IMG/VR virus record: IMGVR_UViG_2897333091_000004
Length of the DNA stretch: 30,232 nt
Source of the DNA: a virus
Taxonomy: Duplodnaviria; Heunggongvirae; Uroviricota; Caudoviricetes
Reading direction: 5' to 3' (one strand)
Shown in pieces: positions 569 to 25,428 of the stretch (position 1 is its first letter; each line of letters begins with the position of its first letter). Under the pieces are notes generated by a model. That model saw only the letters and a program-made list of their open reading frames with translations, had not been told where the DNA came from and did no database searches. The translations under genes were made by a program, and so were the position numbers.

Positions 569-778
569 GTAAAACAAATCGGCGAGCATGCCTGGCTGAT
601 TGAGAAAGCTGGAATCGTGGTCCACAAATGCCCACGCAATCCGTTTACCGGAAACCGCATTTTTGCATTGAGCTGCGGCGACAATCAATTCGGGCAGGAT
701 TTCACATTATACGAAGCACTTCGCACGGTTGATCGTCTGCTTCGTGGGCAAAGTTTTATTAAACAGGCTGATTTATAA
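569..778 (+). CDS. 3' fragment of an unknown protein (N-terminus missing at the contig edge)
   Basis: Open frame from the contig start to a TAA at 776-778 (...AWLIEKAGIVVHKCPRNPFTGNRIFALSCGDNQFGQDFTLYEALRTVDRLLRGQSFIKQADL). No recognisable motif. Confidence 0.35.
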   Translation, partial: VKQIGEHAWLIEKAGIVVHKCPRNPFTGNRIFALSCGDNQFGQDFTLYEALRTVDRLLRGQSFIKQADL

Positions 779-788
779 CAGGTGCTTT

Positions 789-1067
789 ATGACCAAAGAG
801 CATGCACAAGGTGTATTTATCCGTTTTATTGATTTTCGCGGTGAACTGTTATTACGCGCATCAGCCATTGACGGAGTTGTTCCATCCGAAAAAAACGCAG
901 CTACTTACGTTTATCTGAACGGTACGCGCCTGACTGTGGAGCTTCCGTACCAGACCGTACGAGAAATCATTAGCGAAGCTGAAAAGGCACGTCAGGTTAA
1001 TGGCGATGAACCCTATATCGAAATTATTTGTATGGATTCAGAAGCTGAAATTCAGAAAGCAGATTAA
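789..1067 (+). CDS. hypothetical small phage-type protein (93 aa)
   Basis: ATG at 789 (MTKEHAQGVFIRF...), same strand and tightly spaced with the following genes. No recognisable domain. Confidence 0.5.
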   Translation: MTKEHAQGVFIRFIDFRGELLLRASAIDGVVPSEKNAATYVYLNGTRLTVELPYQTVREIISEAEKARQVNGDEPYIEIICMDSEAEIQKAD

Positions 1068-1078
1068 AGGGCGTTGCG

Positions 1079-1321
1079 ATGGGCAAAGAATATAAAACTC
1101 TCATTAATAAAGCACTTGAACGATTTTATTTTCGCTTAAGTGCATCAGGCGCTCATGCTGAACGTGCAGCCCGTGACTCATTGACCAGGGCAATCCGGAG
1201 TTTGTATGACGTCGCTTTTTACGCTGATGATCTGGATGCACTTAACGAACTTTCCGAGCTGATCTGTGCCGCAGAATGCGGGGAACATATTGAACCGTAT
1301 AAGCTGGGGAATATCGCATGA
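1079..1321 (+). CDS. hypothetical protein (80 aa)
   Basis: ATG preceded by AAAGGG; the stop overlaps the next start (ATGA). Confidence 0.5.
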   Translation: MGKEYKTLINKALERFYFRLSASGAHAERAARDSLTRAIRSLYDVAFYADDLDALNELSELICAAECGEHIEPYKLGNIA

Positions 1322-1431
1322 GTATATTTATCTCATGGCTTGTTCTGATTATTTCGGTGGCCTGCGCCATTGGGATTATGCGAATTATTCATTCAGTAAA
1401 AAAGATTGAACGCTTTTTCACTGACGAATAA
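1318..1431 (+). CDS. small hydrophobic peptide (37 aa), candidate single-pass membrane protein
   Basis: The ATG overlaps the upstream TGA (ATGA coupling). The product MSIFISWLVLIISVACAIGIMRIIHSVKKIERFFTDE has a hydrophobic core followed by basic residues. Not in the supplied ORF track (below its size cutoff). Confidence 0.35.
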   Translation: MSIFISWLVLIISVACAIGIMRIIHSVKKIERFFTDE

Positions 1432-1523
1432 CAGCTTAAACAAAACACCAGATTAAACCCGAAAACCTGAAAACTATCCGCATTCGCGGAGGTATTCGCA
1501 CACGTAAATAACGGAGATATAAA

Positions 1524-1940
1524 ATGAACACAAAAGAAGAAGGCATTATCAACACATTAAAAAAAATATCAGAAGCGGAAGATGAAATGGCTAAAGATGC
1601 CGTGAAGCGTAGCCAACATATGGCAGCACTTCACGCACTGACCATTGCAAAAATCACCGCTGACGCAGCCAAAATTATTGAGGAACAGAGCAAAGAAATC
1701 GACACTCTTAAAACACAGTCAACAGTTGCAGCCATGAATCCGTCCAGCATTGGACGCTGCATTTATATTCTTGGTTCAGCAATGATGCTGCAATACACCA
1801 TTATTGCCGAACTGCACGGCAAATACCTGATAACGCCTTACCACACAAAAGAGTCAGAGCTTCTGACAAATCTCCGCCTGATAGAACGCTCTCAAGCTGT
1901 ATTCATTGATGACGCGCAACGTGCCGTATTTAACGCATAG
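1524..1940 (+). CDS. hypothetical protein (138 aa)
   Basis: ATG preceded by GGAGAT; long ORF co-directional with the operon. Confidence 0.6.
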   Translation: MNTKEEGIINTLKKISEAEDEMAKDAVKRSQHMAALHALTIAKITADAAKIIEEQSKEIDTLKTQSTVAAMNPSSIGRCIYILGSAMMLQYTIIAELHGKYLITPYHTKESELLTNLRLIERSQAVFIDDAQRAVFNA

Positions 1941-1963
1941 GGTTACTGGACAAAGGGGGCGCA

Positions 1964-2167
1964 ATGGCAATTAAGCATTTTTCCGTCGTTCGCTTTACCT
2001 CCAGAGGGCGCGAATACGAGGTCGACGAACGCCTGATTACCACTATCGACAAACATCGTTCGGAAAAGGATGCGCACCACATCTACCTCACTGACGGCAC
2101 TTATTTCTGCGCCACCAACGTGGCGCGGGTGAATCTTATCCGACAAGTACAGGAGCCACGCAGATGA
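1964..2167 (+). CDS. hypothetical protein (67 aa)
   Basis: ATG preceded by AAGGGGG; the stop overlaps the next start. Confidence 0.5.
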   Translation: MAIKHFSVVRFTSRGREYEVDERLITTIDKHRSEKDAHHIYLTDGTYFCATNVARVNLIRQVQEPRR

Positions 2168-2430
2168 CCATTCTGGACTACATCGCTACTCATCCGGGGT
2201 GTAGCGGCGGAGAGATCGCCGCAGCACTGAATACTCCAACCACAGCCATTAATGCTGAGTTACGCCAACTTTGGCGCGGCGGCTTAGTCATCAGAACAAA
2301 CCGCAGCACAGGTGGTCGCGCTCGCAAAACTGGAGGCCAGGCTTCTTACCACGTAAACCCGATGCCGTTCGGGTGTAGCAATCCACTTACTCACATGTTT
2401 AACCAGCTACTGAAGGAAGCCAGAACATGA
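2164..2430 (+). CDS. hypothetical protein (88 aa), possibly a small winged-helix DNA-binding protein
   Basis: Translationally coupled to both neighbours (overlapping stop and start). The segment GGEIAAALNTPTTAINAELRQLWRGGLV resembles an HTH; this is inference only. Confidence 0.5.
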   Translation: MTILDYIATHPGCSGGEIAAALNTPTTAINAELRQLWRGGLVIRTNRSTGGRARKTGGQASYHVNPMPFGCSNPLTHMFNQLLKEART

Positions 2431-2726
2431 GCACCATCAACCACCAGAAGCTACGCGAACTGGCATTTGCCCTGCAACGAATGGCAACTCCTCAAAAATT
2501 ACTGGCATTTCGCGCAATGCTCTCGCCGTCTGCTGTGCTGGCACTGCTGGATCAGCTGGAGCACGCCAGAACCACGGCTCCTGCCATTCGCCTGACGCTC
2601 CATCATGAAATCGCTGATTTCTGCGCAACGCTGGGGGCACCTGGCGAACCGGAAACGCCGGAAGCAATGCAGCAAGAGCTGCTGCAACGCATTGACAAGG
2701 TTTTTGATTTTTTTCTGAACCAGTAA
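2427..2726 (+). CDS. hypothetical protein (99 aa)
   Basis: Start overlaps the upstream stop; last gene before the terminator. Confidence 0.5.
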   Translation: MSTINHQKLRELAFALQRMATPQKLLAFRAMLSPSAVLALLDQLEHARTTAPAIRLTLHHEIADFCATLGAPGEPETPEAMQQELLQRIDKVFDFFLNQ

Positions 2727-2848
2727 GAAACCAGAACATGCACACACAAAAAAACCGCTTGCCATGCCGCAATCGGTCAGGTTACATTTCCGCTGCACCT
2801 CATAAAACGGGTGCCGGGATTCTCAACCCGATACAGAGCAAAGCGCAT

Positions 2849-2869
2849 AACCGCGCCAGCGGTTTTTTT
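2849..2869 (+). terminator. rho-independent terminator
   Basis: Hairpin AACCGC-GCCA-GCGGTT followed by a T7 run. Confidence 0.6.
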
Positions 2870-2881
2870 GTGCGTACTGTA

Positions 2882-2910
2882 TTGCCACGTCTTTTTCGCG
2901 TCAGAATTAT
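2882..2910 (+). promoter_or_regulatory. candidate sigma70 promoter
   Basis: TTGCCA (-35), 17-nt spacer, AATTAT (-10), just downstream of the terminator and upstream of the structured leader. Confidence 0.35.
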
Positions 2911-3016
2911 GGCGGGGCGTACGGGGCCGACTTCGGTCGGGCCGGATTCTTTGCTCTCCGGTGTTGAGAACCCTGTACGTCTCGCCACCCCGAGATTCTC
3001 AACTCTGGATGGTGAG

Positions 3017-3116
3017 NNNNNNNNNNNNNNNNNNNNNNNNNNNNNNNNNNNNNNNNNNNNNNNNNNNNNNNNNNNNNNNNNNNNNNNNNNNNNNNNNNNN
3101 NNNNNNNNNNNNNNNN
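3017..3116. other. assembly gap (100 N); the contigs on each side share an identical 127-bp terminal sequence
   Basis: 2890-3016 is identical to 3117-3243. Confidence 1.
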
Positions 3117-3275
3117 TCTTTTTCGCGTCAGAATTATGGCGGGGCGTACGGGGCCGACTTCGGTCGGGCCGGATTCTTTGCTCTCCGGTGTTGAGAACCC
3201 TGTACGTCTCGCCACCCCGAGATTCTCAACTCTGGATGGTGAGTTATTTCTATCACCGAGCAAAGAGGCCACACC
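3117..3275 (+). promoter_or_regulatory. structured 5' leader: strong UUCG-tetraloop hairpin plus nested stems that sequester the SD of the downstream gene
   Basis: Hairpin GGCCGAC-UUCG-GUCGGGCC at about 3152-3170. A central element (3171-3200) contains CTTTGCTC and GTTGAGAA, complementary to TTCTCAAC (3223-3230) and GAGCAAAG (3258-3265); the latter overlaps the AAGAGG SD of the ATG at 3276. Confidence 0.45.
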
Positions 3276-3506
3276 ATGGCAGACCGCAAACAGCACCGCG
3301 CTATCGCGGAGCGTCGTCACATCCAGACTGAAATCAACCGCAGACTTTCCCGCGCATCACGCGTCGCGCAAATCATGCACATCAATATGCTGCATGAGCG
3401 CAGCCACGCACTATCAAACATTTATTCCGCCTCTGTTTTCAGCTATCTGGCGGATGATCTGCACGAGCTTCAACAGCTCATCCAGCAGCAAAACAAACTC
3501 CATTAA
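3276..3506 (+). CDS. hypothetical small basic protein (76 aa), first gene of the replication operon
   Basis: ATG with AAGAGG SD; a near-identical paralog lies at 6320-6550. Confidence 0.6.
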   Translation: MADRKQHRAIAERRHIQTEINRRLSRASRVAQIMHINMLHERSHALSNIYSASVFSYLADDLHELQQLIQQQNKLH

Positions 3507-3578
3507 TTCCTGTTCCGGGCCTTTCCTGCACCTTGCGGCGGGAGGCCTTCGCACATCTGTAACAAGAGGATTGCCGCA

Positions 3579-3944
3579 ATGATTCTCGCCAACGACTTTC
3601 TTGAATACCTGCTCAACACAGAACGTGATCTTGCCGCTCGCGTGCGTGATCGTTATGACATGTACCTGAAATCCCTGCCTGTACCGCAGCTCGCTGACGG
3701 AAAGATTGTTATTGATGGTCGCTACATGATTGACAGCCACGAGGGAAATTACAGGCTTTACCGCATTGAAGGTGGCACCCCGTCCGTTATTGGCATTTAC
3801 CAGCGCCCATCCTCTGCAATCGTCGATGTGATTGCCGACAGCATCCGCATCACACATCGCCATGCCGACACAGAAGACACCGTGCTGGAAATTCAGCGGC
3901 TGGCTACCGTCTGCCGCGACACCCTGAATGGCATGACGAAGTAA
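3579..3944 (+). CDS. hypothetical protein (121 aa) immediately upstream of gpA; positional analogue of the P2 B / 186 CP-type replication accessory genes
   Basis: ORF ending 6 nt before the gpA start; weakly similar to its counterpart at 6623-7012. Confidence 0.55.
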   Translation: MILANDFLEYLLNTERDLAARVRDRYDMYLKSLPVPQLADGKIVIDGRYMIDSHEGNYRLYRIEGGTPSVIGIYQRPSSAIVDVIADSIRITHRHADTEDTVLEIQRLATVCRDTLNGMTK

Positions 3945-3950
3945 ATCACT

Positions 3951-6060
3951 ATGACGGCAGAGTACATCAGGGACTGGCAACAACCGCGCCACGCAGTAGG
4001 ACGTGAAGGAACGGGGATCCCCGTTCCTGAATCCGCGCTTTCCTCCTGGCTGGATGCCTACCGGGTAGAGAACGAGCGCCGCCAGGAAATGGCTGATGCG
4101 GCGTTCTCCGCCACGCCGCTGGGCAACCTGATTAATAAAAGCCTGGACGCACAGGAAAAACAGGACAAAACCATCACACTGGCAGGAGACGCCAGAAAGC
4201 AGGTACGCGGCGCGGTGGATGAAGCCATGGCCTCGCTGCGCCTGCTGCCATCCTATCTGCGCGATCCGCTTATTCGCCACCTCTCCTTCCTGCGCAAAAA
4301 ACAGGAATCTGACCGCCAGAAAGGTAAAAAGAACCAGCAGGCTGAACGCTACGCGCGCGGGACCCTGCGCAAAATATTCGAACGTCTGGACCGCACCGAC
4401 CACCGCTGGCTGACACCGGGTTATCGCTCCCTTGCCGGACGCGAACGCCTGGATGATTTGCTTTACCTCCCGCAACTCAACAAGCACCAGATACAGACGC
4501 TGGCCACCATGACGGCAGCGATGTTCAGCAGCACCTTCGAAAAACTCTGCGATGGCTTTGGCGCGACCGATGGCGAGCTGACCATGGATGTAACCCTGAA
4601 GGCGTATCAGATGCTGGCCCGCATGGCGTTACACCTGCACGCCATGCCTCCACATTATGACGCACTGACAACAGACAAAGACCGGAGGAACGAACCGGAC
4701 ACGGAGCTGCTGCCGGGCGCAGTCCTTCGCCTGACCTGTGCGCAATGGTGGAAACGCAAACTGTGGCTGTTACGTTGCGAGTGGAGAGAAGAACAACTCC
4801 GCGCCACCTGTCTGGTTTCCAGAAAAACATCGCCCTATCTGAGCCAGGACGCGTTAAGCGAGTTTCGCGCACAGCGCGAGAAAACACGCGATTTCCTGAA
4901 AAGTTTCATGCTGGAAAATGAAGACGGGTTCACGATTGATCTCGAGACGGTGTATTACGCGGGAGTAAGTAACCCGGTTCACCGTAAGGCAGAAATGATG
5001 GCCACCATGAAGGGGCTGGAACTTCTGGCCGAAGCCCGTGGCGACAAAGCGGTGTTTCTGACTGTCACCTGCCCGTCAAAATACCACGCCACAACAGAGA
5101 ACGGTCATCCGAATCCCAAATGGAACGGGGCCACCATGCGCGACTCCAGCGATTATCTGGTTAACACGTTTTTTGCGGCGGTCCGCAAAAAACTGAACCG
5201 CGACGGCCTGCGCTGGTATGGCATCCGCACGGTGGAGCCTCACCATGACGGCACCGTGCACTGGCATATGATGGTCTTTGCTCATCCGGAAGAAATCGAC
5301 AGCATCGTGGCCATCACCCGCGATATTGCCATTCAGGAAGACCGCCACGAGCTGGGCAATGATATTACTCCGCGCTTTAAGGTGGAGTACGTCGACGGCT
5401 CCAAAGGCACGCCAACCAGCTACATCGCCACCTACATCGGAAAAAACCTGGACAGCCGCGCCGTGGATGGAATCGACCCGAAAACGGGCAAACCACGCGT
5501 TGACCACGAAACCGGAAAATCAATGGCCGAGAGCGTGGAGCGCGCCATCGGCTGGGCGCGCCTTCATCGGGTCCGCCAGTTCCAGTTCTTTGGCATCCCC
5601 TCCCGTCAGGTGTGGCGTGAACTGCGCCGCCTTGCCAGCCAGATGGCACGCAACCCGGAAGGCCCGCAACGGCTGAAGGATGACGCAATGGATGCGGTAC
5701 TCGCTGCCGCTGATGCCGGATGTTTTGCCACCTACATTGAAAAACAGGGTGGCGTACTTGTTCCGCGCAAGGACTACCTGATTCGCACAGCCTACGACCT
5801 CGCAGATGAGCTGAACGATTACGGCGAACAGAGTGTACAGATTTACGGGATCTGGTCGCCATTCATCGGGGAATCCTCCCGTGTGTGCACGCATCCGGAT
5901 AACTGGAAGCTGGTAAGACGTAAACCGGAAGCGGAAGACAGCGCCCGCGAAAATGGTTTTGACCTTCAGGGCGGCCCTGCCGCCCCTTGGACTCGTGGCA
6001 ATAACTGTCCCCGTGTACAGGAAACGGACAACAACGGGACAGAACAGCCGGAAGAACGGC
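3951..6060 (+). CDS. A: P2 gpA-like rolling-circle replication initiator (HUH endonuclease), allele 1; 3' end cut by the contig edge
   Basis: HUH motif in GTVHWHMMVFAHP and paired catalytic tyrosines in TSYIATYIGKN (YxxxY), the hallmark of phiX174-A/P2-A superfamily initiators. The track ORF continues through the N run artificially. Confidence 0.75.
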
Positions 6061-6160
6061 NNNNNNNNNNNNNNNNNNNNNNNNNNNNNNNNNNNNNNNN
6101 NNNNNNNNNNNNNNNNNNNNNNNNNNNNNNNNNNNNNNNNNNNNNNNNNNNNNNNNNNNN
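6061..6160. other. assembly gap (100 N)
   Basis: Run of 100 N. Confidence 1.
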
Positions 6161-6319
6161 TCTTTTTCGCGTCAGAATTATGGCGGGGCGTACGGGGCCG
6201 ACTTCGGTCGGGCCGGATTCTTTGCTCTCCGGTGTTGAGAACCCTGTACGTCTCGCCACCCCGAGATTCTCAACTCTGGATGGTGAGCTATTTCTATCAC
6301 CGAGCAAAGAGGCCACACC
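6161..6319 (+). promoter_or_regulatory. second copy of the structured leader (first 127 bp identical to 3117-3243)
   Basis: Identical sequence, including the UUCG hairpin and the SD-sequestering stem, ahead of the ATG at 6320. Confidence 0.45.
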
Positions 6320-6550
6320 ATGGCAAACCGCAAACAACAGCGCGCATACGCTGCGCGTCGTCACATCCAGACTGAAATCAACCGTAGACTTTTCCGCGCA
6401 TCACGCGTCGCGCAAATCATGCACATCAATATGCTGCATGAGCGCAGCCACGCGCTATCGAACATCTATTCCGCCTCTGTTTTCAGCTATCTGGCGGATG
6501 ATCTGCGCGAGCTGCAACAACTCTTCCAGCAGCAAAACAAACTCCATTAA
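6320..6550 (+). CDS. hypothetical small basic protein (76 aa), paralog of 3276-3506
   Basis: About 90 percent identical translation (MANRKQQRAYAARRHIQTEINRR...). Confidence 0.6.
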   Translation: MANRKQQRAYAARRHIQTEINRRLFRASRVAQIMHINMLHERSHALSNIYSASVFSYLADDLRELQQLFQQQNKLH

Positions 6551-6622
6551 TTCCTGTTCCGGGCCTTTCCTGCACCTTGCGGCGGGAGGCCTTCGCACAT
6601 CTGTAGTAAAGAGAATTGCAGC

Positions 6623-7012
6623 ATGATTGACGCTCATGACTTCACAAGATGGGTGCGCACACAGGACACCCGTCTGGCTCCCGTTCTTCAGGGATTATTT
6701 GATCTCTACATCCGTGGTCGTGACAACAGAGCACGCACCACAAAACCGGAGAATGCAGACACCCTTTATTTCACAGTAGACGACTGCTACCGCGTGGACT
6801 TCACACCACACGGGCTGGCGTTGCACTGCCTGACACCACACGGAGAATCACTGCTGGCGTATTACGACTCCCCGGCCTCCGTATTTGCGGCAATGCTGGC
6901 GCATCGCACTGCTGGCGGGTGTGCCTCGCTGAGTGAATACACCGCTGAATTTAACCGCCTTTCTGCCCTCTTCTCGCAGGAGTGGCAGCGCGTGACGGGA
7001 TACCAGCCATGA
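6623..7012 (+). CDS. hypothetical protein (129 aa) upstream of gpA allele 2; divergent counterpart of 3579-3944
   Basis: Its stop overlaps the gpA allele-2 start (ATGA at 7009-7012). Confidence 0.55.
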   Translation: MIDAHDFTRWVRTQDTRLAPVLQGLFDLYIRGRDNRARTTKPENADTLYFTVDDCYRVDFTPHGLALHCLTPHGESLLAYYDSPASVFAAMLAHRTAGGCASLSEYTAEFNRLSALFSQEWQRVTGYQP

Positions 7013-9136
7013 ATGAGTTTGCATGGAGCTGGAATGAACCACGGCCAGCCATTGATCCGGCCAGATTTACGGAGCACAGGCAGGAAACTGAAACCGACCT
7101 GCAACGCGCCATCCGTTACTACCTTGAGGCAGACAAAAAGGCTCTGGAAGAACAGGAAGCGAAGGAGGAAGCCTTTTTCGCACAATCCACCGTGGGTAAA
7201 AAACTCATGGCATCCCTTGAGGAAGCCGGACAGCGTGAAAAGCTGGCACAAAGCATCATCAGCAAGCGTCAGGCAACAGAACAAGACCCGGTGGCCCGTG
7301 CTTTTGCCACACTGAAGGTGCTTCCCGTTTATCTGCGTGAACCTCTGAGCCGCCACCTCTCTTTCCTGCGCAAAAAACAGGAAGCCGATCGCCAGAAAGG
7401 CAAAAAGAGCTGGCAGGCTGAACGCTACGCGCGCGGAACCCTGCGCAAAATATTCGAACGCCTGGACCGCACCGACCACCGCTGGCTGACACCGGGTTAT
7501 CGCTCCCTTGCCGGACGCGAACGCCTGGATGATTTGCTTTACCTGCCGCAGCTCAACAAGCACCAGATACAGACGCTGGCCACCATGACGGCGGCGATGT
7601 TCAGCAGCACCTTCGAAAAACTCTGCGATGGCTTTGGCGCGACCGATGGTGAGCTGACCATGGAGGTGGCACTGAAGGCGTATCAGATGCTGGCCCGCAT
7701 GGTGTTACACCTGCACGCCATGCCTCCACATTATGACGCACTGACAACAGACAAAGACCGCAAGAACGAACCGGACACGGAACTGCTGCCGGGCGCAATC
7801 CTCCGCCTGACCTGTGCGGAATGGTGGAAACGCAAACTGTGGCTGTTACGTTGCGAGTGGCGGGAAGAACAACTCCGCGCCGCCTGTCTGGTTTCCAGAA
7901 AAACATCGCCCTATCTGAGCCAGGACGCGTTAAGCGAGTTTCGCGCACAGCGCGAGAAAACACGCGATTTCCTGAAAAGTTTCATGCTGGAAAACGAAGA
8001 CGGGTTCACGATTGATCTCGAGACGGTGTATTACGCGGGAGTAAGTAACCCGGTCCACCGTAAAGCAGAAATGATGGCCACCATGAAGGGGCTGGAACTT
8101 CTGGCCGAAGCCCGTGGCGACAGAGCGGTGTTTCTGACTGTCACCTGCCCGTCAAAATACCACGCCACAACAGAGAACGGTCATCCGAATCCCAAATGGA
8201 ACGGGGCCACCATGCGCGACTCCAGCGATTACCTGGTTAACACGTTTTTTGCGGCGGTCCGCAAAAAACTGAACCGCGATGGCCTGCGCTGGTATGGCAT
8301 CCGCACGGTGGAGCCTCACCATGACGGCACCGTGCACTGGCATATGATGGTCTTTGCACATCCGGACGAGATTGAAACCATCGTGTCCCATGTCTGCGAT
8401 ATTGCCATTCAGGAAGACCGCCACGAGCTGGGCGATGACATAACTCCGCGTTTTAAGGCTGAGTACGTAGACGGCTCAAAAGGCACGCCAACCAGCTACA
8501 TCGCCACCTACATCGGAAAGAACCTGGACAGCCGCGCCGTGGATGGCATCGACCCGAAAACGGGCAAGCCACGCGTTGACCACGAAACCGGAAAATCAAT
8601 GGCAGAGAGCGTGGAACGCGCCATCGGCTGGGCGCGCCTTCACCGGGTCCGCCAGTTCCAGTTCTTTGGCATTCCCTCTCGTCAGGTATGGCGTGAACTC
8701 CGCCGCCTTGCCAGCCAGATGGCACGCAACCCGGAAGGCCCACAACGGCTGAAGGATGATGCAATGGATGCGGTACTCGCTGCCGCTGATGCCGGGTGTT
8801 TTGCCACCTACATTGAGAAACAGGGCGGCGTACTTGTTCCACGCAAAGACTACCTGATTCGCACCGCCTACGACCTCGCAGATGAGCTGAACGATTACGG
8901 CGAGCAGAGTGTACAGATTTACGGGATCTGGTCGCCGCTCATCGGGGAGTCTTCCCGTGTGTGCACACATCCGGATAACTGGAAGCTGGTAAGACGTAAA
9001 CCTGAAGCAGAAGACAGCGCCCGCGAAAATGGTTTTGACCTTCAGGGCGGCCCTGCCGCCCCTTGGACTCGTGGCAATAACTGTCCCCGTGTACAGGAAA
9101 CGGACAACAACGGGACAGAACAGCCGGAAGAACGGC
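7009..9136 (+). CDS. A: P2 gpA-like rolling-circle replication initiator, allele 2; continues across the gap into 9237-10076
   Basis: Same HUH and YxxxY motifs. About 97 percent identical to allele 1 after roughly residue 110, but the N-terminal ~110 residues are unrelated. The ATG at 7009 overlaps the upstream stop. Confidence 0.75.
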
Positions 9137-9236
9137 NNNNNNNNNNNNNNNNNNNNNNNNNNNNNNNNNNNNNNNNNNNNNNNNNNNNNNNNNNNNNNNN
9201 NNNNNNNNNNNNNNNNNNNNNNNNNNNNNNNNNNNN
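9137..9236. other. assembly gap (100 N); flanking contigs overlap by an identical 127-bp sequence
   Basis: 9010-9136 is identical to 9237-9363. Confidence 1.
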
Positions 9237-10076
9237 GAAGACAGCGCCCGCGAAAATGGTTTTGACCTTCAGGGCGGCCCTGCCGCCCCTTGGACTCGTG
9301 GCAATAACTGTCCCCGTGTACAGGAAACGGACAACAACGGGACAGAACAGCCGGAAGAACGGCCAGCACCGTGGCCGCAGCTCCCTGACGGCATTGAAGT
9401 GAATGAATGGATGCGCTCACTGAAACGGCACGAACGCCGGGCACTGATGCGTTCGCTGCGTGACAAACAGGCCAAAAACAGCAGTGATGAAATGCAGAAC
9501 TGGACACAGAGCCGCAAACAGCCACAGCCTTTGCCTGATAACCACGAATTACTCGCTAAAGAATGGCGGGAGTCTGCCGAATCTCTCGGCCTGCATATCG
9601 GTGAACAGCAGATGCAGCACCTGTTACGGGGCGGCAGCCTGTACGTTGACGGCAGCATCATTGCACCGCAGGGATTTGAAATTGTACGCAAACCGGATAC
9701 CCGCCCGGACAGCCGAATCACGCAGCTCTGGCAGCGCCTGAGCCGTAATCACGGCGTAAGCAGCACGGAGATCCGCCATAACCCGGTCGCCAGCTATCTG
9801 GCACAGCTCGGGGCATCAGACCCCGAAGCCGCCGCACGCCTGACATCCACACTTCAGCAGGACCAGAACACCATGAAAACACCCGTTACCGTGCTTTCTG
9901 ACATGCTGCGCGCCATTCGTGACGCAGAGCACGCACAGAGAATCAGTGAAACCACTGAACGCGCCCGCCGCAAAGCAGACCTGCTGCGGGGTAGCCTGAT
10001 CAGTGGCAACAAAAAACAGACAGAAACGGGATTCACAAATCCCGCAAATGAGCAAAAAACACGCCGCGATATATGA
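9237..10076 (+). CDS. A: C-terminal part of the gpA-like initiator (in frame with the pre-gap sequence through the 127-bp overlap)
   Basis: Frame 0 reads EDSARENGFDLQGG...TEQPEERPAPWPQLPDGIEVNEWMRSLKRHERR... without stops to 10076. The track ORF 9399-10076 is the distal part of the same frame. Confidence 0.6.
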   Translation, partial: EDSARENGFDLQGGPAAPWTRGNNCPRVQETDNNGTEQPEERPAPWPQLPDGIEVNEWMRSLKRHERRALMRSLRDKQAKNSSDEMQNWTQSRKQPQPLPDNHELLAKEWRESAESLGLHIGEQQMQHLLRGGSLYVDGSIIAPQGFEIVRKPDTRPDSRITQLWQRLSRNHGVSSTEIRHNPVASYLAQLGASDPEAAARLTSTLQQDQNTMKTPVTVLSDMLRAIRDAEHAQRISETTERARRKADLLRGSLISGNKKQTETGFTNPANEQKTRRDI

Positions 10077-10117
10077 AGCGCGCACAAAACAGGCGAAAGC
10101 GGGATTTAAAAATCCCG
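10027..10117 (+). promoter_or_regulatory. two related palindromes upstream of parM; candidate parC-like centromere/operator
   Basis: CGGGATTCACAAATCCCG (about 10027-10044) and CGGGATTTAAAAATCCCG (about 10100-10117), followed by the TTAATTAA palindrome and the parM RBS. Confidence 0.3.
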
Positions 10118-10152
10118 TAAACGGTTAATTAACCAACATAAGGAAAATCGAC

Positions 10153-11112
10153 ATGAAAATTTGTATCGACGACGGCTCCACCAACATCAAGCTGGCATGG
10201 ACTGAAAACGGCGAACGCCGCAACGCCATCAGCCCGAACAGCTTCAAGTCGGAATGGTCTGCGCCGTTCGGTGGCTCGCAGCCTGCGAACTACATGCTTG
10301 ATGGCGTGCGCTATGGTTTTGATCCGGTCAGCGATCGCTTTGTCCAGACGACCGACACGCAATACCAGTACAGCGATGTGAATGTCATTGCCATTCATCA
10401 CGCGCTGGTCAAATCAGGCATCACGCCACAGGAGGTGGATGTGGTTGTCACCCTGCCACTGAGCGAGTATTTCGACACAAACGCACAGCCGGACATGGCC
10501 AACATCAACCGCAAAAAAGCGAACGTTATGCGCCCGGTGGAGTACCAGAACGGCGAAGCATTCACTATCCGTAACGTGCGGGTTATGCCTGAATCCATTC
10601 CGGCCGGCTTTAAGGCACTGGCTGACATGAGTCCGTTTGAATCCCTGCTGATTGTGGATTTGGGCGGAACCACGCTGGATGTGGCAAAGGTTCAGGGGCA
10701 ACTGGCAGGTATCAGCCAGGTGTTTTGCGATCCACACGTAGGCGTTTCTCTGATGGCCGATGCCGTACTGTCGGTGATGGCCACTAACGGTATGCGCACC
10801 AGTCACCACATCGCCAATACCATTATCGAACATCGCCATGATGAAGCCTGGCTGCGCCAGCACATCCACAATGACGCACATTACGCCAGCCTGATGGCGG
10901 TTATTCGTGAAAAGGAAGAAACACTGAAACAACGCGTGATCCGCGCGCTGGCGGGTTTTTCGGGTTACGGGCGGGTGATGGTTGTAGGTGGAGGAGCGGA
11001 GATTGTGGCACCCGCTATCCGCGAAGCCTGCGGAGTTAATGCGACTTTCATCGCGGACGGGGTGCCACAGTTTGCTCTGGTTAATGGGCTGTACGCAATG
11101 GACAAGGAGTAA
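10153..11112 (+). CDS. parM: ParM/StbA-type actin-like plasmid segregation ATPase
   Basis: Recalled alignment to plasmid R1 ParM over the whole length: IDDGSTNIKL, ISPNSFK, YSDVNVIAIHHAL, MPESIPAGF, DLGGTTLD, VGGGAE. Confidence 0.85.
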   Translation: MKICIDDGSTNIKLAWTENGERRNAISPNSFKSEWSAPFGGSQPANYMLDGVRYGFDPVSDRFVQTTDTQYQYSDVNVIAIHHALVKSGITPQEVDVVVTLPLSEYFDTNAQPDMANINRKKANVMRPVEYQNGEAFTIRNVRVMPESIPAGFKALADMSPFESLLIVDLGGTTLDVAKVQGQLAGISQVFCDPHVGVSLMADAVLSVMATNGMRTSHHIANTIIEHRHDEAWLRQHIHNDAHYASLMAVIREKEETLKQRVIRALAGFSGYGRVMVVGGGAEIVAPAIREACGVNATFIADGVPQFALVNGLYAMDKE

Positions 11113-11116
11113 ACCA

Positions 11117-11318
11117 ATGACGACACCAACCAGACGGATAAGTTTCTATCTGAAGCCCGCCGCCGTCAAGAACGAAGGCGAAGCATGCGCCTGGCTGGAC
11201 AGCCTTACACCAGAAGCCCGCAAAAGCGGCCAACGCGTGGCTTTTCTGGCCGGGCTGGCACTTCTGAAAATGAATCCGGCAGAGGCTTACCGACTGGCTG
11301 CATGGGCTGATGATGAGG
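11117..11318 (+). CDS. parR: ParR-type centromere-binding adaptor, N-terminal part (cut by the gap)
   Basis: ATG 5 nt after the parM stop. MTTPTRRISFYLKPAAV...LDSLTPEARKSGQRVAFLAGLALL resembles the R1 ParR ribbon-helix-helix N-terminus. Confidence 0.6.
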
Positions 11319-11418
11319 NNNNNNNNNNNNNNNNNNNNNNNNNNNNNNNNNNNNNNNNNNNNNNNNNNNNNNNNNNNNNNNNNNNNNNNNNNNNNNNNNN
11401 NNNNNNNNNNNNNNNNNN
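11319..11418. other. assembly gap (100 N)
   Basis: Run of 100 N. Confidence 1.
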
Positions 11419-20088: not shown

Positions 20089-20188
20089 NNNNNNNNNNNN
20101 NNNNNNNNNNNNNNNNNNNNNNNNNNNNNNNNNNNNNNNNNNNNNNNNNNNNNNNNNNNNNNNNNNNNNNNNNNNNNNNNNNNNNNNN
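20089..20188. other. assembly gap (100 N)
   Basis: Run of 100 N. Confidence 1.
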
Positions 20189-24361: not shown

Positions 24362-24628
24362 ATGAGTATTGCTAATTGCGTTATCGGCCCACTTTACGAT
24401 GAGCAAATAAAAAAAACACTTATGTATGCTGACCATAAATTCAAGCGGCTAATGAATACACGAATGTCGTTACTCGAACATTTATCACCCCACTATGACT
24501 TATCTTCCATGTTCAGCTATGAGTTGGAGGGAAGAGTTTTTCGGATTAAATTGATCAAGCCTGAGATTAAATTATCTCGCCAGCAGTTGATCTTCTCCTC
24601 ACTCTTTTTAGAGCAAGATTTTCGGTAA
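24362..24628 (+). CDS. hypothetical protein, probably truncated by the IS1 insertion (stop codon supplied by the IS1 terminus)
   Basis: ORF (MSIANCVIGPLYDEQIKK...) ends at a TAA formed by the first bases of IS1 (GGTAATG); AT-rich. Confidence 0.35.
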   Translation: MSIANCVIGPLYDEQIKKTLMYADHKFKRLMNTRMSLLEHLSPHYDLSSMFSYELEGRVFRIKLIKPEIKLSRQQLIFSSLFLEQDFR

Positions 24629-24638
24629 TGACTCCAAC

Positions 24639-25142
24639 TTACTGATAGTGTTTTATGTTCAGATAATGCCCGATGACCTTGTCATGCAGCTCCACCGATT
24701 TTGAGAACGACAGTGACTTCCGTCCCAGCCTTGCCAGATGTTGTCTCAGATTCAGATTATGTCGCTCAATGCGCTGAGTGTAACGCTTGCTGATAACGTG
24801 CAGCTTTCCCTTCAGGCGTGATTCATACAGCGGCCAGCCATCCGTCATCCATACCACGACCTCAAAGGCCGACAGCAGGCTCAGAAGACGCTCCAGTGTG
24901 GCCAGAGTGCGTTCACCAAAGACGTGCGCCACAACCGTCCTCCGTATCCTGTCATAAGCGTAAAACAGCCAGCGCTGACGTGATTTAGCACCGACGTAGC
25001 CCCACTGTTCGTCCATTTCAGCGCAGACAATCACATCACTGCCCGGTTGTATGCGCGAGGTTACCGACTGCGGCCTGAGTTTTTTAAGTGACGTAAAACC
25101 GTGTTGAGGCCAACGCCCATAATGCGTGCACTGGCGCGACAT
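24639..25142 (-). CDS. insB: IS1 InsB (transposase frame, expressed as InsAB' by a -1 frameshift)
   Basis: 167-aa ORF overlapping the insA 3' end in the -1 frame. Confidence 0.9.
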
Positions 25143-25336
25143 CCGACGCCATTCATGGCCATATCAATGATTTTCTGGTGCGTACCGGGCTGAGAGGCGG
25201 TGTAAGTGAACTGTAGTTGCCATGTTTTACGGCAATGAGAGCAGAGATAGCGCTGATGTCCGGCAGTGCTTTTGCCGTTACGCACCACGCCTTCAGTAGC
25301 GGAGCAGGAAGGACATCTGATGGAAATGGAAGCCAC
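25061..25336 (-). CDS. insA: IS1 InsA
   Basis: [42 protein letters not shown]..., an InsA variant. Confidence 0.95.
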
Positions 25337-25428
25337 GCAAGCACCTTAAAATCACCATCATACACTAAATCAGTAAGTTGGCAGCATTACCCGGAGCCAC
25401 CCCAATAACAAGTTATACAGAGAACATA

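Follow-up and report, generated by a model that had tools for sequence, protein, structure and literature searches.

An apparent tandem replication module in a P88-like prophage scaffold is probably an assembly artefact of two natural alleles

Does the virus record IMGVR_UViG_2897333091_000004 (Caudoviricetes) contain a replication module twice in tandem, as its written order implies? The window, by which we mean this whole 30,232-base stretch of DNA, presents two versions of the gene for the rolling-circle initiator gpA between positions 3117 and 10076, each preceded by a derepression-family gene and a small gene. DNA identity places the element among the P88-like prophages (Xuanwuvirus, Peduoviridae) of Escherichia coli. 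Read literally, the scaffold would imply a tandem replication module, a truncated or fused 891-amino-acid (aa) 'gpA' and an extra copy of the origin. We argue instead, with a probability of roughly 0.88, that the arrangement is a scaffold artefact of two natural alleles that differ by a cassette exchanged by recombination and that likely derive from two co-resident prophages.

The record is a scaffold of seven contigs split by six runs of N, each exactly 100 long (469-568, 3017-3116, 6061-6160, 9137-9236, 11319-11418 and 20089-20188). Four contigs, c1 to c4, are at issue.

569-3016: c1, the upstream contig common to both paths
2890-3016, + strand: left 127-mer, copy 1, at the end of c1; identical to 3117-3243 and 6161-6287
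3017-3116 and 9137-9236, no strand: 100-N scaffold gaps flanking the two paths
3117-6060, + strand: c2, bubble path 1 (allele 1, P88 type), 2,944 bp, with k-mer overlaps at 3117-3243 and 5934-6060
6061-6160, no strand: 100-N gap between the alternative paths, not a real adjacency
6161-9136, + strand: c3, bubble path 2 (allele 2, PhiR44_2/Chuche type), 2,976 bp, with k-mer overlaps at 6161-6287 and 9010-9136
9237-9363, + strand: right 127-mer, copy 3, at the start of c4
9237-11318: c4, the downstream contig common to both paths

Both c2 and c3 start with exactly the 127 bases that end c1, and c4 starts with exactly the 127 bases that end both c2 and c3. The initial annotation had described these ends as common to both contigs and to their flanks, and we found the match to be exact on all four sides, at the positions it had given. 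Overlaps of this kind cannot arise by chance, and when all seven contigs were compared, no pair overlapped beyond the c1-c4 junctions. Untrimmed overlaps of an odd length (k = 127), together with two contigs lying between the same two nodes, are the topology of a de Bruijn bubble. We propose that a short-read de Bruijn assembly with 127 as its largest k would have formed such a bubble, in which c1 and c4 are linked by two alternative contigs, and that the scaffolder would have written both alternatives in series, with 100-N spacers and with the k-mer overlaps left in. The true state would be two separate elements, each with one copy of the derepression gene, the small Orf83-like gene, gpA and ParM. 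Each junction as written adds 227 extra bases, which shifts the reading frame and truncates the first gpA at residue 703, and spurious open reading frames (ORFs) cross the N runs at 3951-6626 (891 aa) and 6982-9402.

We rebuilt the two paths without the overlaps, which gave 7,220 bp for c1+c2+c4 and 7,252 bp for c1+c3+c4. Both rebuilt paths carry one intact gene series: small early genes, the derepression gene, the small gene (s1 or s2), gpA and the ParM ATPase. The parts of this series that differ between the paths, and the part of gpA that they share, are as follows.

3579-3944, + strand: s1 (allele 1), 121 aa, PHROG 3237, a distant relative of DUF5405/P2 Orf83; ends 6 nucleotides (nt) before gpA
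3951-6060, + strand: gpA allele 1, residues 1-703, continuing at 9364-10076 (940 aa in total)
6623-7012, + strand: s2 (allele 2), 129 aa, whose stop codon overlaps the gpA start (ATGA)
7009-9136, + strand: gpA allele 2, residues 1-709, continuing at 9364-10076 (946 aa in total)
9364-10076, + strand: shared 3' part of gpA, encoding the C-terminal 237 residues and the stop codon in both paths

Finished genomes contain either path as a single copy. Path 2 aligned without gaps to the single-copy prophage of E. coli GPEC1446 (99.4% identity over 7,252 bp), and c3 is 100% identical to that locus over its 2,976 bp. Path 1 aligned without gaps to the single-copy prophage of E. coli HCM-28C-2 (98.6% over 7,218 bp), with 99.2% identity for c2. 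We searched the whole of 3117-9136 (6,020 nt) against 5,426 complete E. coli genomes, where a real tandem would appear as one place with ~98% query coverage and a genome span of ~6 kb. None of the 5,426 genomes contained a tandem. The best place covered 87% of the query within a genome span of 2,976 bp, which means that the two halves of the query map to a single copy. The 84 matching phage records likewise had one place each and no tandem. The initial annotation had proposed that the tandem is an artefact, and the exact overlaps, the single-copy colinear prophages and the lack of any complete genome spanning both copies all support it.

Comparison with P88 indicates where the window comes from and how far its joins can be trusted. 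DNA identity to P88 was 84.6-97.5% over the aligning blocks (92.6-97.5% for the longer ones), and the contigs are colinear with P88 2182-10021 and 26966-34807. The join at 11318/11419 jumps from P88 position ~10021, in the partition gene, to ~26966, in the tail-fibre/invertase region, and the ~16 kb omitted comprises the head, lysis and baseplate genes, which are missing from the scaffold. This adjacency was absent from all complete E. coli genomes searched, so the N runs of the record do not certify adjacency. Either a scaffolding error produced the join, or the join marks a deletion remnant like CRPr20 of Citrobacter rodentium.

Both alleles are found independently of this record. Compared over their full lengths, path 1 is 95.9-96.7% identical to a set of phages comprising vB_EcoM-569R5 (96.7%), P88 (95.9%) and P884B11, and path 2 shares 95.1% identity with phage PhiR44_2. 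The view in the initial annotation that the two paths are real variants therefore holds, as each allele occurs alone in independent phage isolates and in hundreds of genomes. The allele-1 patch (the divergent segment delimited below) was present in 1,004 of the 5,426 complete E. coli genomes and the allele-2 patch in 408. As 1,340 genomes have either patch, 72 carry both, reported as separate places. The family is present in about one quarter of complete E. coli genomes.

The two reference prophages occupy different sites, HCM-28C-2 (path 1) beside pdxB and GPEC1446 (path 2) beside ppa/ytfQ, and their integrase, repressor (C) and cox modules are unrelated. The block of homology between them begins ~155 bp before the start of c1 and ends ~206 bp after the end of c4. 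Limits so close to the outer edges of c1 and c4 are as expected if these contigs are the collapsed common parts of two prophages. The most likely source would be two heteroimmune P88-like prophages at different attachment sites of one E. coli genome, with two strains a less likely one. A precedent exists in C. rodentium, in which an intact P88-like phage is co-resident with a related remnant (PMC6456863).

The best surviving alternative concerns this source and not the artefact: a mixed sample (by contamination or in a metagenome), in which two E. coli strains with one P88-like prophage each were co-assembled. A mixture would yield the same bubble topology, each allele is common on its own at the frequencies given above, and one public assembly with this prophage family is probably contaminated. 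However, 72 finished genomes have both alleles, so that co-residence is not rare, the record holds no other paired alternative contigs, and c1 and c4 are each present as one sequence with no second version in the record. We consider a mixed sample possible but doubtful, and two co-resident prophages at different attachment sites the likelier source. A scan of genome contigs for the locus yielded three loci. One of them, on a 226-kb contig (L003; NZ_JBQPOM010000071.1) labelled as the Firmicute 'Vagococcus sp. WN89Y', encodes an allele-2 P88-like gpA (91% identical) and a small protein that is 100% identical. That assembly is probably contaminated or mislabelled.

If the two contigs are alleles, in what do they differ? 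An identity profile of c2 against c3 delimits one divergent patch.

3585-4260, + strand: divergent patch of allele 1, comprising s1 and gpA codons 1 to ~104
6630-7335, + strand: divergent patch of allele 2, comprising s2 and gpA codons 1 to ~110

Outside the patch, DNA identity is 86-100% per 60-nt block, and the alleles are ~95-97% identical overall there. Between 3580-4260 and 6625-7340 it falls to 30-55%, roughly the level of unrelated DNA. The figure of about 97% identity for gpA beyond residue ~110, given in the initial annotation, agrees with the 97.5% that we measured (809 of 830 residues, positions 111-940). The C-terminal 237 residues come from c4 and are hence identical by construction; residues 111-703, which the alternative contigs encode, are identical at 572 of 593 positions. 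In contrast to the core, residues 1-95 are only 21% identical between the alleles.

The swapped parts had been called unrelated or only weakly similar, and it is the second description that applies, since they are divergent homologues. The gpA N-termini share 26% identity over 110 aligned positions (E 2e-6) and the same family anchors, a W-x-x-P near residue 8-11 and an L-P-x-Y-L-R-x-P-L at the boundary with the core. The proteins s1 and s2 are 22% identical (BLASTP E 1e-5), and both match PHROG 3237 over its full length (s1, E 3e-55, residues 1-121 on positions 1-127 of 129; s2, E 4.8e-60, residues 1-128 on positions 1-129).

The divergence is old. Synonymous divergence (dS) is 1.8 for the small gene and 3.2 for the gpA N-terminus, compared with 0.156 in the core, and the ratio of nonsynonymous to synonymous divergence (dN/dS) ranges from 0.27 to 0.58 in the patch, with a core value of 0.11. 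We rejected fast evolution or positive selection as the source of the divergence, since dN/dS lies below 1 (0.13-0.58) and the synonymous sites of the patch are saturated. In a 28-sequence family alignment, the N-termini of the two alleles are 21% identical, which is the range of the most distant enterobacterial relatives (17-30%), whereas their cores are 94% identical. Saturated dS, dN/dS below 1 and N-termini as far apart as those of distant relatives together indicate old lineages under somewhat relaxed purifying selection. The patches are best read as ancient alleles set on a recently shared backbone by recombination, and not as products of rapid adaptive change. A cassette of ~700 bp, consisting of the small gene and the first ~100 gpA codons, would have been swapped by homologous recombination in the conserved flanks, with its left edge at the start codon of the small gene and its right edge near gpA codon 100-105.

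Allele 1 contains a perfect 22-bp palindrome, AGGAACGGGGATCCCCGTTCCT, at 4007-4028 in gpA codons 19-26, whereas a stretch of 1.2 kb should contain ~0.0003 such palindromes by chance. Among related allele-1 loci, 6 have it in perfect form, 28 with one mismatch and 5 with two. No T tract follows it. We rejected an internal terminator of the kind found in 186 (tM1) within the 5' end of gpA, as a consensus scan of both patches gave no terminator-like site on the coding strand.

We asked what the exchanged segment might do. The Phage_GPA domain (PF05840) was matched over the whole profile at residues 179-503 (E 1.9e-130; 435 bits against a cut-off of 31.4), downstream of the patch. The A protein of P2 has an HUH-type metal-binding motif and paired active-site tyrosines. 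In the 28-sequence alignment (A3), H443-W444-H445, Y497 and Y501 do not vary, and all of them are present in both alleles. The motif that resembles the annotated nick sites of P2 and 186 also lies outside the patch.

5982-6010, + strand: putative origin (ori) nick motif, identified by similarity to the annotated P2/186 nick sites; recurs at 9058-9086 and 9285-9313

This putative motif encodes the family-invariant APWTRGNNCP at gpA residue 680 (allele 1) or 686 (allele 2) and is homologous, on similarity only, to P2 29892 and 186 28576. It is inside the right 127-mer, with the same sequence in either allele, and so a putative origin appears three times in the scaffold as opposed to once per real element. 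Neither patch contained an allele-specific repeat family, and only short two-copy matches at chance level were detected. The absence of such repeats and the identical nick-site homologue led us to reject ori or iteron specificity as the role of the swapped N-terminus. As the alleles have their catalytic core and putative nick site in common, the cassette does not appear to be a determinant of ori recognition.

An AlphaFold2 model of allele 2 residues 1-520, built with the 28-sequence alignment (mean predicted local distance difference test, pLDDT, 76), predicts a variable part that consists of a poorly ordered tail with the W-x-x-P, two long helices (30-59 and 61-90) forming a hairpin, and a short helix. 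The well-predicted, conserved region of the nuclease core begins at about residue 105. We infer that the initiator has in the cassette an accessory or regulatory front end, which may act through tight translational coupling from the small gene to gpA and through protein-protein contacts of the helical hairpin.

The other half of the cassette is a small protein of a very narrow family. A profile search among 1.84 billion representatives retrieved 41 members, with ~14 full-length classes that are <50% identical to each other. Neither s1 nor s2 gave a match to DUF5405 (PF17399) at the curated Pfam threshold. At E <= 1, DUF5405 was detected in 8 of 16 family representatives (best 1.5e-6), and hhalign of the family profile against P2 Orf83, a DUF5405 member that is next to A and overlaps the start of that gene, gave a probability of 69% (E 4.4e-5, 77 columns). 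These values point to a distant relationship of the small protein with DUF5405 rather than to membership. The 186 record marks its DUF5405 family protein as 'not essential' and remarks that A appears to be translated only if translation reaches the end of the orf before it. The name 'inositol monophosphatase', given by NCBI to s2 homologues (P0121-P0129), has no backing from Pfam, NCBIfam or the predicted fold. A role in defence or anti-defence was also rejected: PADLOC gave no match, and the anti-Avs 'ORF83' of the literature is a different, Smf/DprA-like protein.

We assessed whether the two halves of the cassette travel together. The small gene and the gpA N-terminus co-segregate at the level of type in 99 loci. 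Among the 85 close loci, every one that holds both segments pairs s1 with N-terminus type 1 or s2 with type 2, and none is mixed, whereas the derepression gene beside the cassette varies freely. In loci L006-L085 that gene is 64% to 100% identical or absent, regardless of cassette type, and is a second, separately recombining spot. We also examined 12 more distant gpA homologues with gene context. In 11 of them a gene of the small-protein family abuts gpA, with anything from a 6-nt gap to a 4-nt overlap; the twelfth (L095, from Serratia) has an unrelated ORF upstream of gpA. In partial Mantel tests, the small protein was correlated with the N-terminus given the core (r = 0.83, p = 1e-4) and not with the core given the N-terminus (r = 0.02). 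The initial annotation had suggested that the N-terminus was swapped together with a preceding partner gene. The joint swap stands, as the two segments co-segregate at all informative loci; that the gene is a partner can only be inferred, and a functional pair is plausible but unproven.

A stronger interpretation, in which the small protein and the gpA N-terminal hairpin are co-adapted, define replication 'types' and are kept as a balanced polymorphism, seems to us unlikely. Such a specificity cassette could, for example, block cross-activation between co-resident relatives or evade a host or satellite factor that targets the initiator. It would fit the two deeply separated allele classes, both of intermediate frequency, on a homogenised core, the co-segregation and the partial correlation just described, the abutting or overlapping gene arrangement conserved across Enterobacterales and the many small-protein classes within so narrow a family. 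However, no interaction is needed to explain the linkage, for which adjacency and low similarity within the patch suffice, and the two parts have come apart within types. Positive selection has left no sign, with dN/dS below 1; the two alleles have the same putative ori; and the DUF5405 family protein of 186 is annotated as not essential. Nor does the pairing of prophages favour it. Double carriers comprise 72 mixed, 22 type 2+2 and roughly 31-61 type 1+1 genomes, counts that are derived from allele counts in genomes that are non-independent samples. This is near random pairing at 0.71/0.29, and there is no sign that copies of the same type exclude each other. In its fullest form, an ancient balanced polymorphism of a co-adapted pair whose type would govern whether an initiator can be used or blocked in trans by co-resident relatives, satellites or host factors, the proposal is, in our estimate, quite improbable.

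A true tandem duplication, with the 3-kb block twice in series and a truncated first gpA, is hardly credible: the written order of the scaffold is all that speaks for it, while no junction sequence joins the right 127-mer to the left 127-mer, the complete genomes and the phage records have single places throughout, a young duplication should have near-identical copies and not a patch with saturated synonymous sites, and the essential gpA of the first copy would be broken.

Several points count against our preferred reading, that of two recombining alleles from co-resident prophages written in series. The artefact is deduced from the sequence and from comparison rather than observed, and on these data two prophages in one genome are indistinguishable from a mixture of two strains. 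That the small gene and the N-terminus co-segregate may be a trivial result, as the parts are adjacent and the patch alleles are too dissimilar for homologous recombination within them. The parts can also come apart within a type. In type 2, L097 and L098 have 92-98% DNA identity in the small gene and ~62% in the N-terminal region; in type 1, A1 and L099 are 82% identical in the N-terminus and 50% identical in the small protein. The model of the gpA N-terminus is only moderately confident (pLDDT 45-77), and neither s1 nor s2 has a match in Pfam, NCBIfam or PADLOC or a fold match in the Protein Data Bank (PDB).

The genes on either side of the cassette and gpA are a derepression-family gene, with one copy in each path, and a ParM gene common to both paths.

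3276-3506, + strand: derepression-family gene of path 1 (76 aa; PF25738, E 7.5e-8), outside the divergent patch
6320-6550, + strand: derepression-family gene of path 2
10153-11112, + strand: ParM-type actin-like partition ATPase, full length (StbA_N, E 2e-82; ParM_N, E 1e-68), directly after gpA
11117-11318: beginning of a ParR-like adaptor gene that runs into the gap at 11318

A ParM ATPase followed by a small adaptor gene constitutes a ParMRC-type locus, and P88 has the same order. In a related locus, the equivalent adaptor gene has a match to PF10784 (Plasmid_stab_B). This is a partition locus of plasmid type within an integrating P2-like prophage.

Elsewhere in the window, IS1 sequences occur as a 468-bp contig with an IS1 fragment (1-468) and as a full IS1 at 24624-25392 in the last contig, and the IS1 copies are likely causes of contig breaks. 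The last contig is non-phage (20014-23989 and 28194-29441): it encodes a type I restriction-modification locus (an hsdR N-terminal fragment, a UPF0149/SEC-C protein, hsdS and hsdM), a DUF2787 gene and a tyrosine integrase, and looks like a separate genomic island.

The practical consequence is that anyone who counts prophages, tabulates gene content or calls duplications at this locus should check the result against the assembly graph. Protein clusters from E. coli drafts that are named 'replication endonuclease, partial' (P0002, P0011, P0044, P0045 and P0084) have 133 to 1,981 members. Contigs evidently often break within gpA, which would fit a widespread bubble problem. The locus also reveals a clean dimorphism, with two types, in a prophage family that is very common in E. 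coli. The variable part of a rolling-circle initiator is narrowed to a helical front end of ~100 residues and an abutting Orf83-like gene, and the two alleles are a defined natural chimera pair for testing the role of this front end. We found no published description of this particular dimorphism in the literature searched. Public phage and genome records already contain both alleles, with identities of up to 100%, and what the record presents is ordinary phage mosaicism together with a scaffolding artefact.

We compared the locus to known systems. As an assembly product, it resembles unresolved bubbles or repeat-collapsed contigs that are written serially, with the same odd k overlaps, two paths and fixed 100-N spacers. 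Xuanwuvirus P88 (NC_026014) has the same gene order, namely a derepression gene, the hypothetical gp15, the replication endonuclease gp16, ParM gp17 and the partition gene gp18; it differs in its upstream accessory genes, with a lipoprotein/protease gene that is absent here, and otherwise in nothing substantial. PhiR44_2 (PV340564), Chuche (PP925824) and the GPEC1446 prophage carry allele 2 with the block in single copy, whereas here it is written after allele 1.

The likeness to gene A of P2 and 186 consists of the Phage_GPA domain, the H-W-H and Y-x-x-x-Y motifs, the putative intragenic nick-site motif and the abutting or overlapping small gene. The gpA of the window is longer (940-946 aa, compared with 761 in P2 and 694 in 186), and it shares about 50% core identity or less with the P2-type relatives examined. 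At 121-129 aa, with two extra N-terminal helices, the small protein is longer than P2 Orf83 (91 aa) and only marginally similar to it. No homologue of P2 gpB is annotated in the early region of P88.

Lambdoid phages exchange the N-terminal domain of their O protein along with its ori iterons. The likeness is that an N-terminal cassette of the initiator is exchanged between near-identical phages through recombination in conserved flanks. In lambda, however, the swapped domain binds iterons inside the swapped DNA, whereas the cassette described here contains no such repeats and the putative ori, identical in both alleles, is 2 kb downstream.

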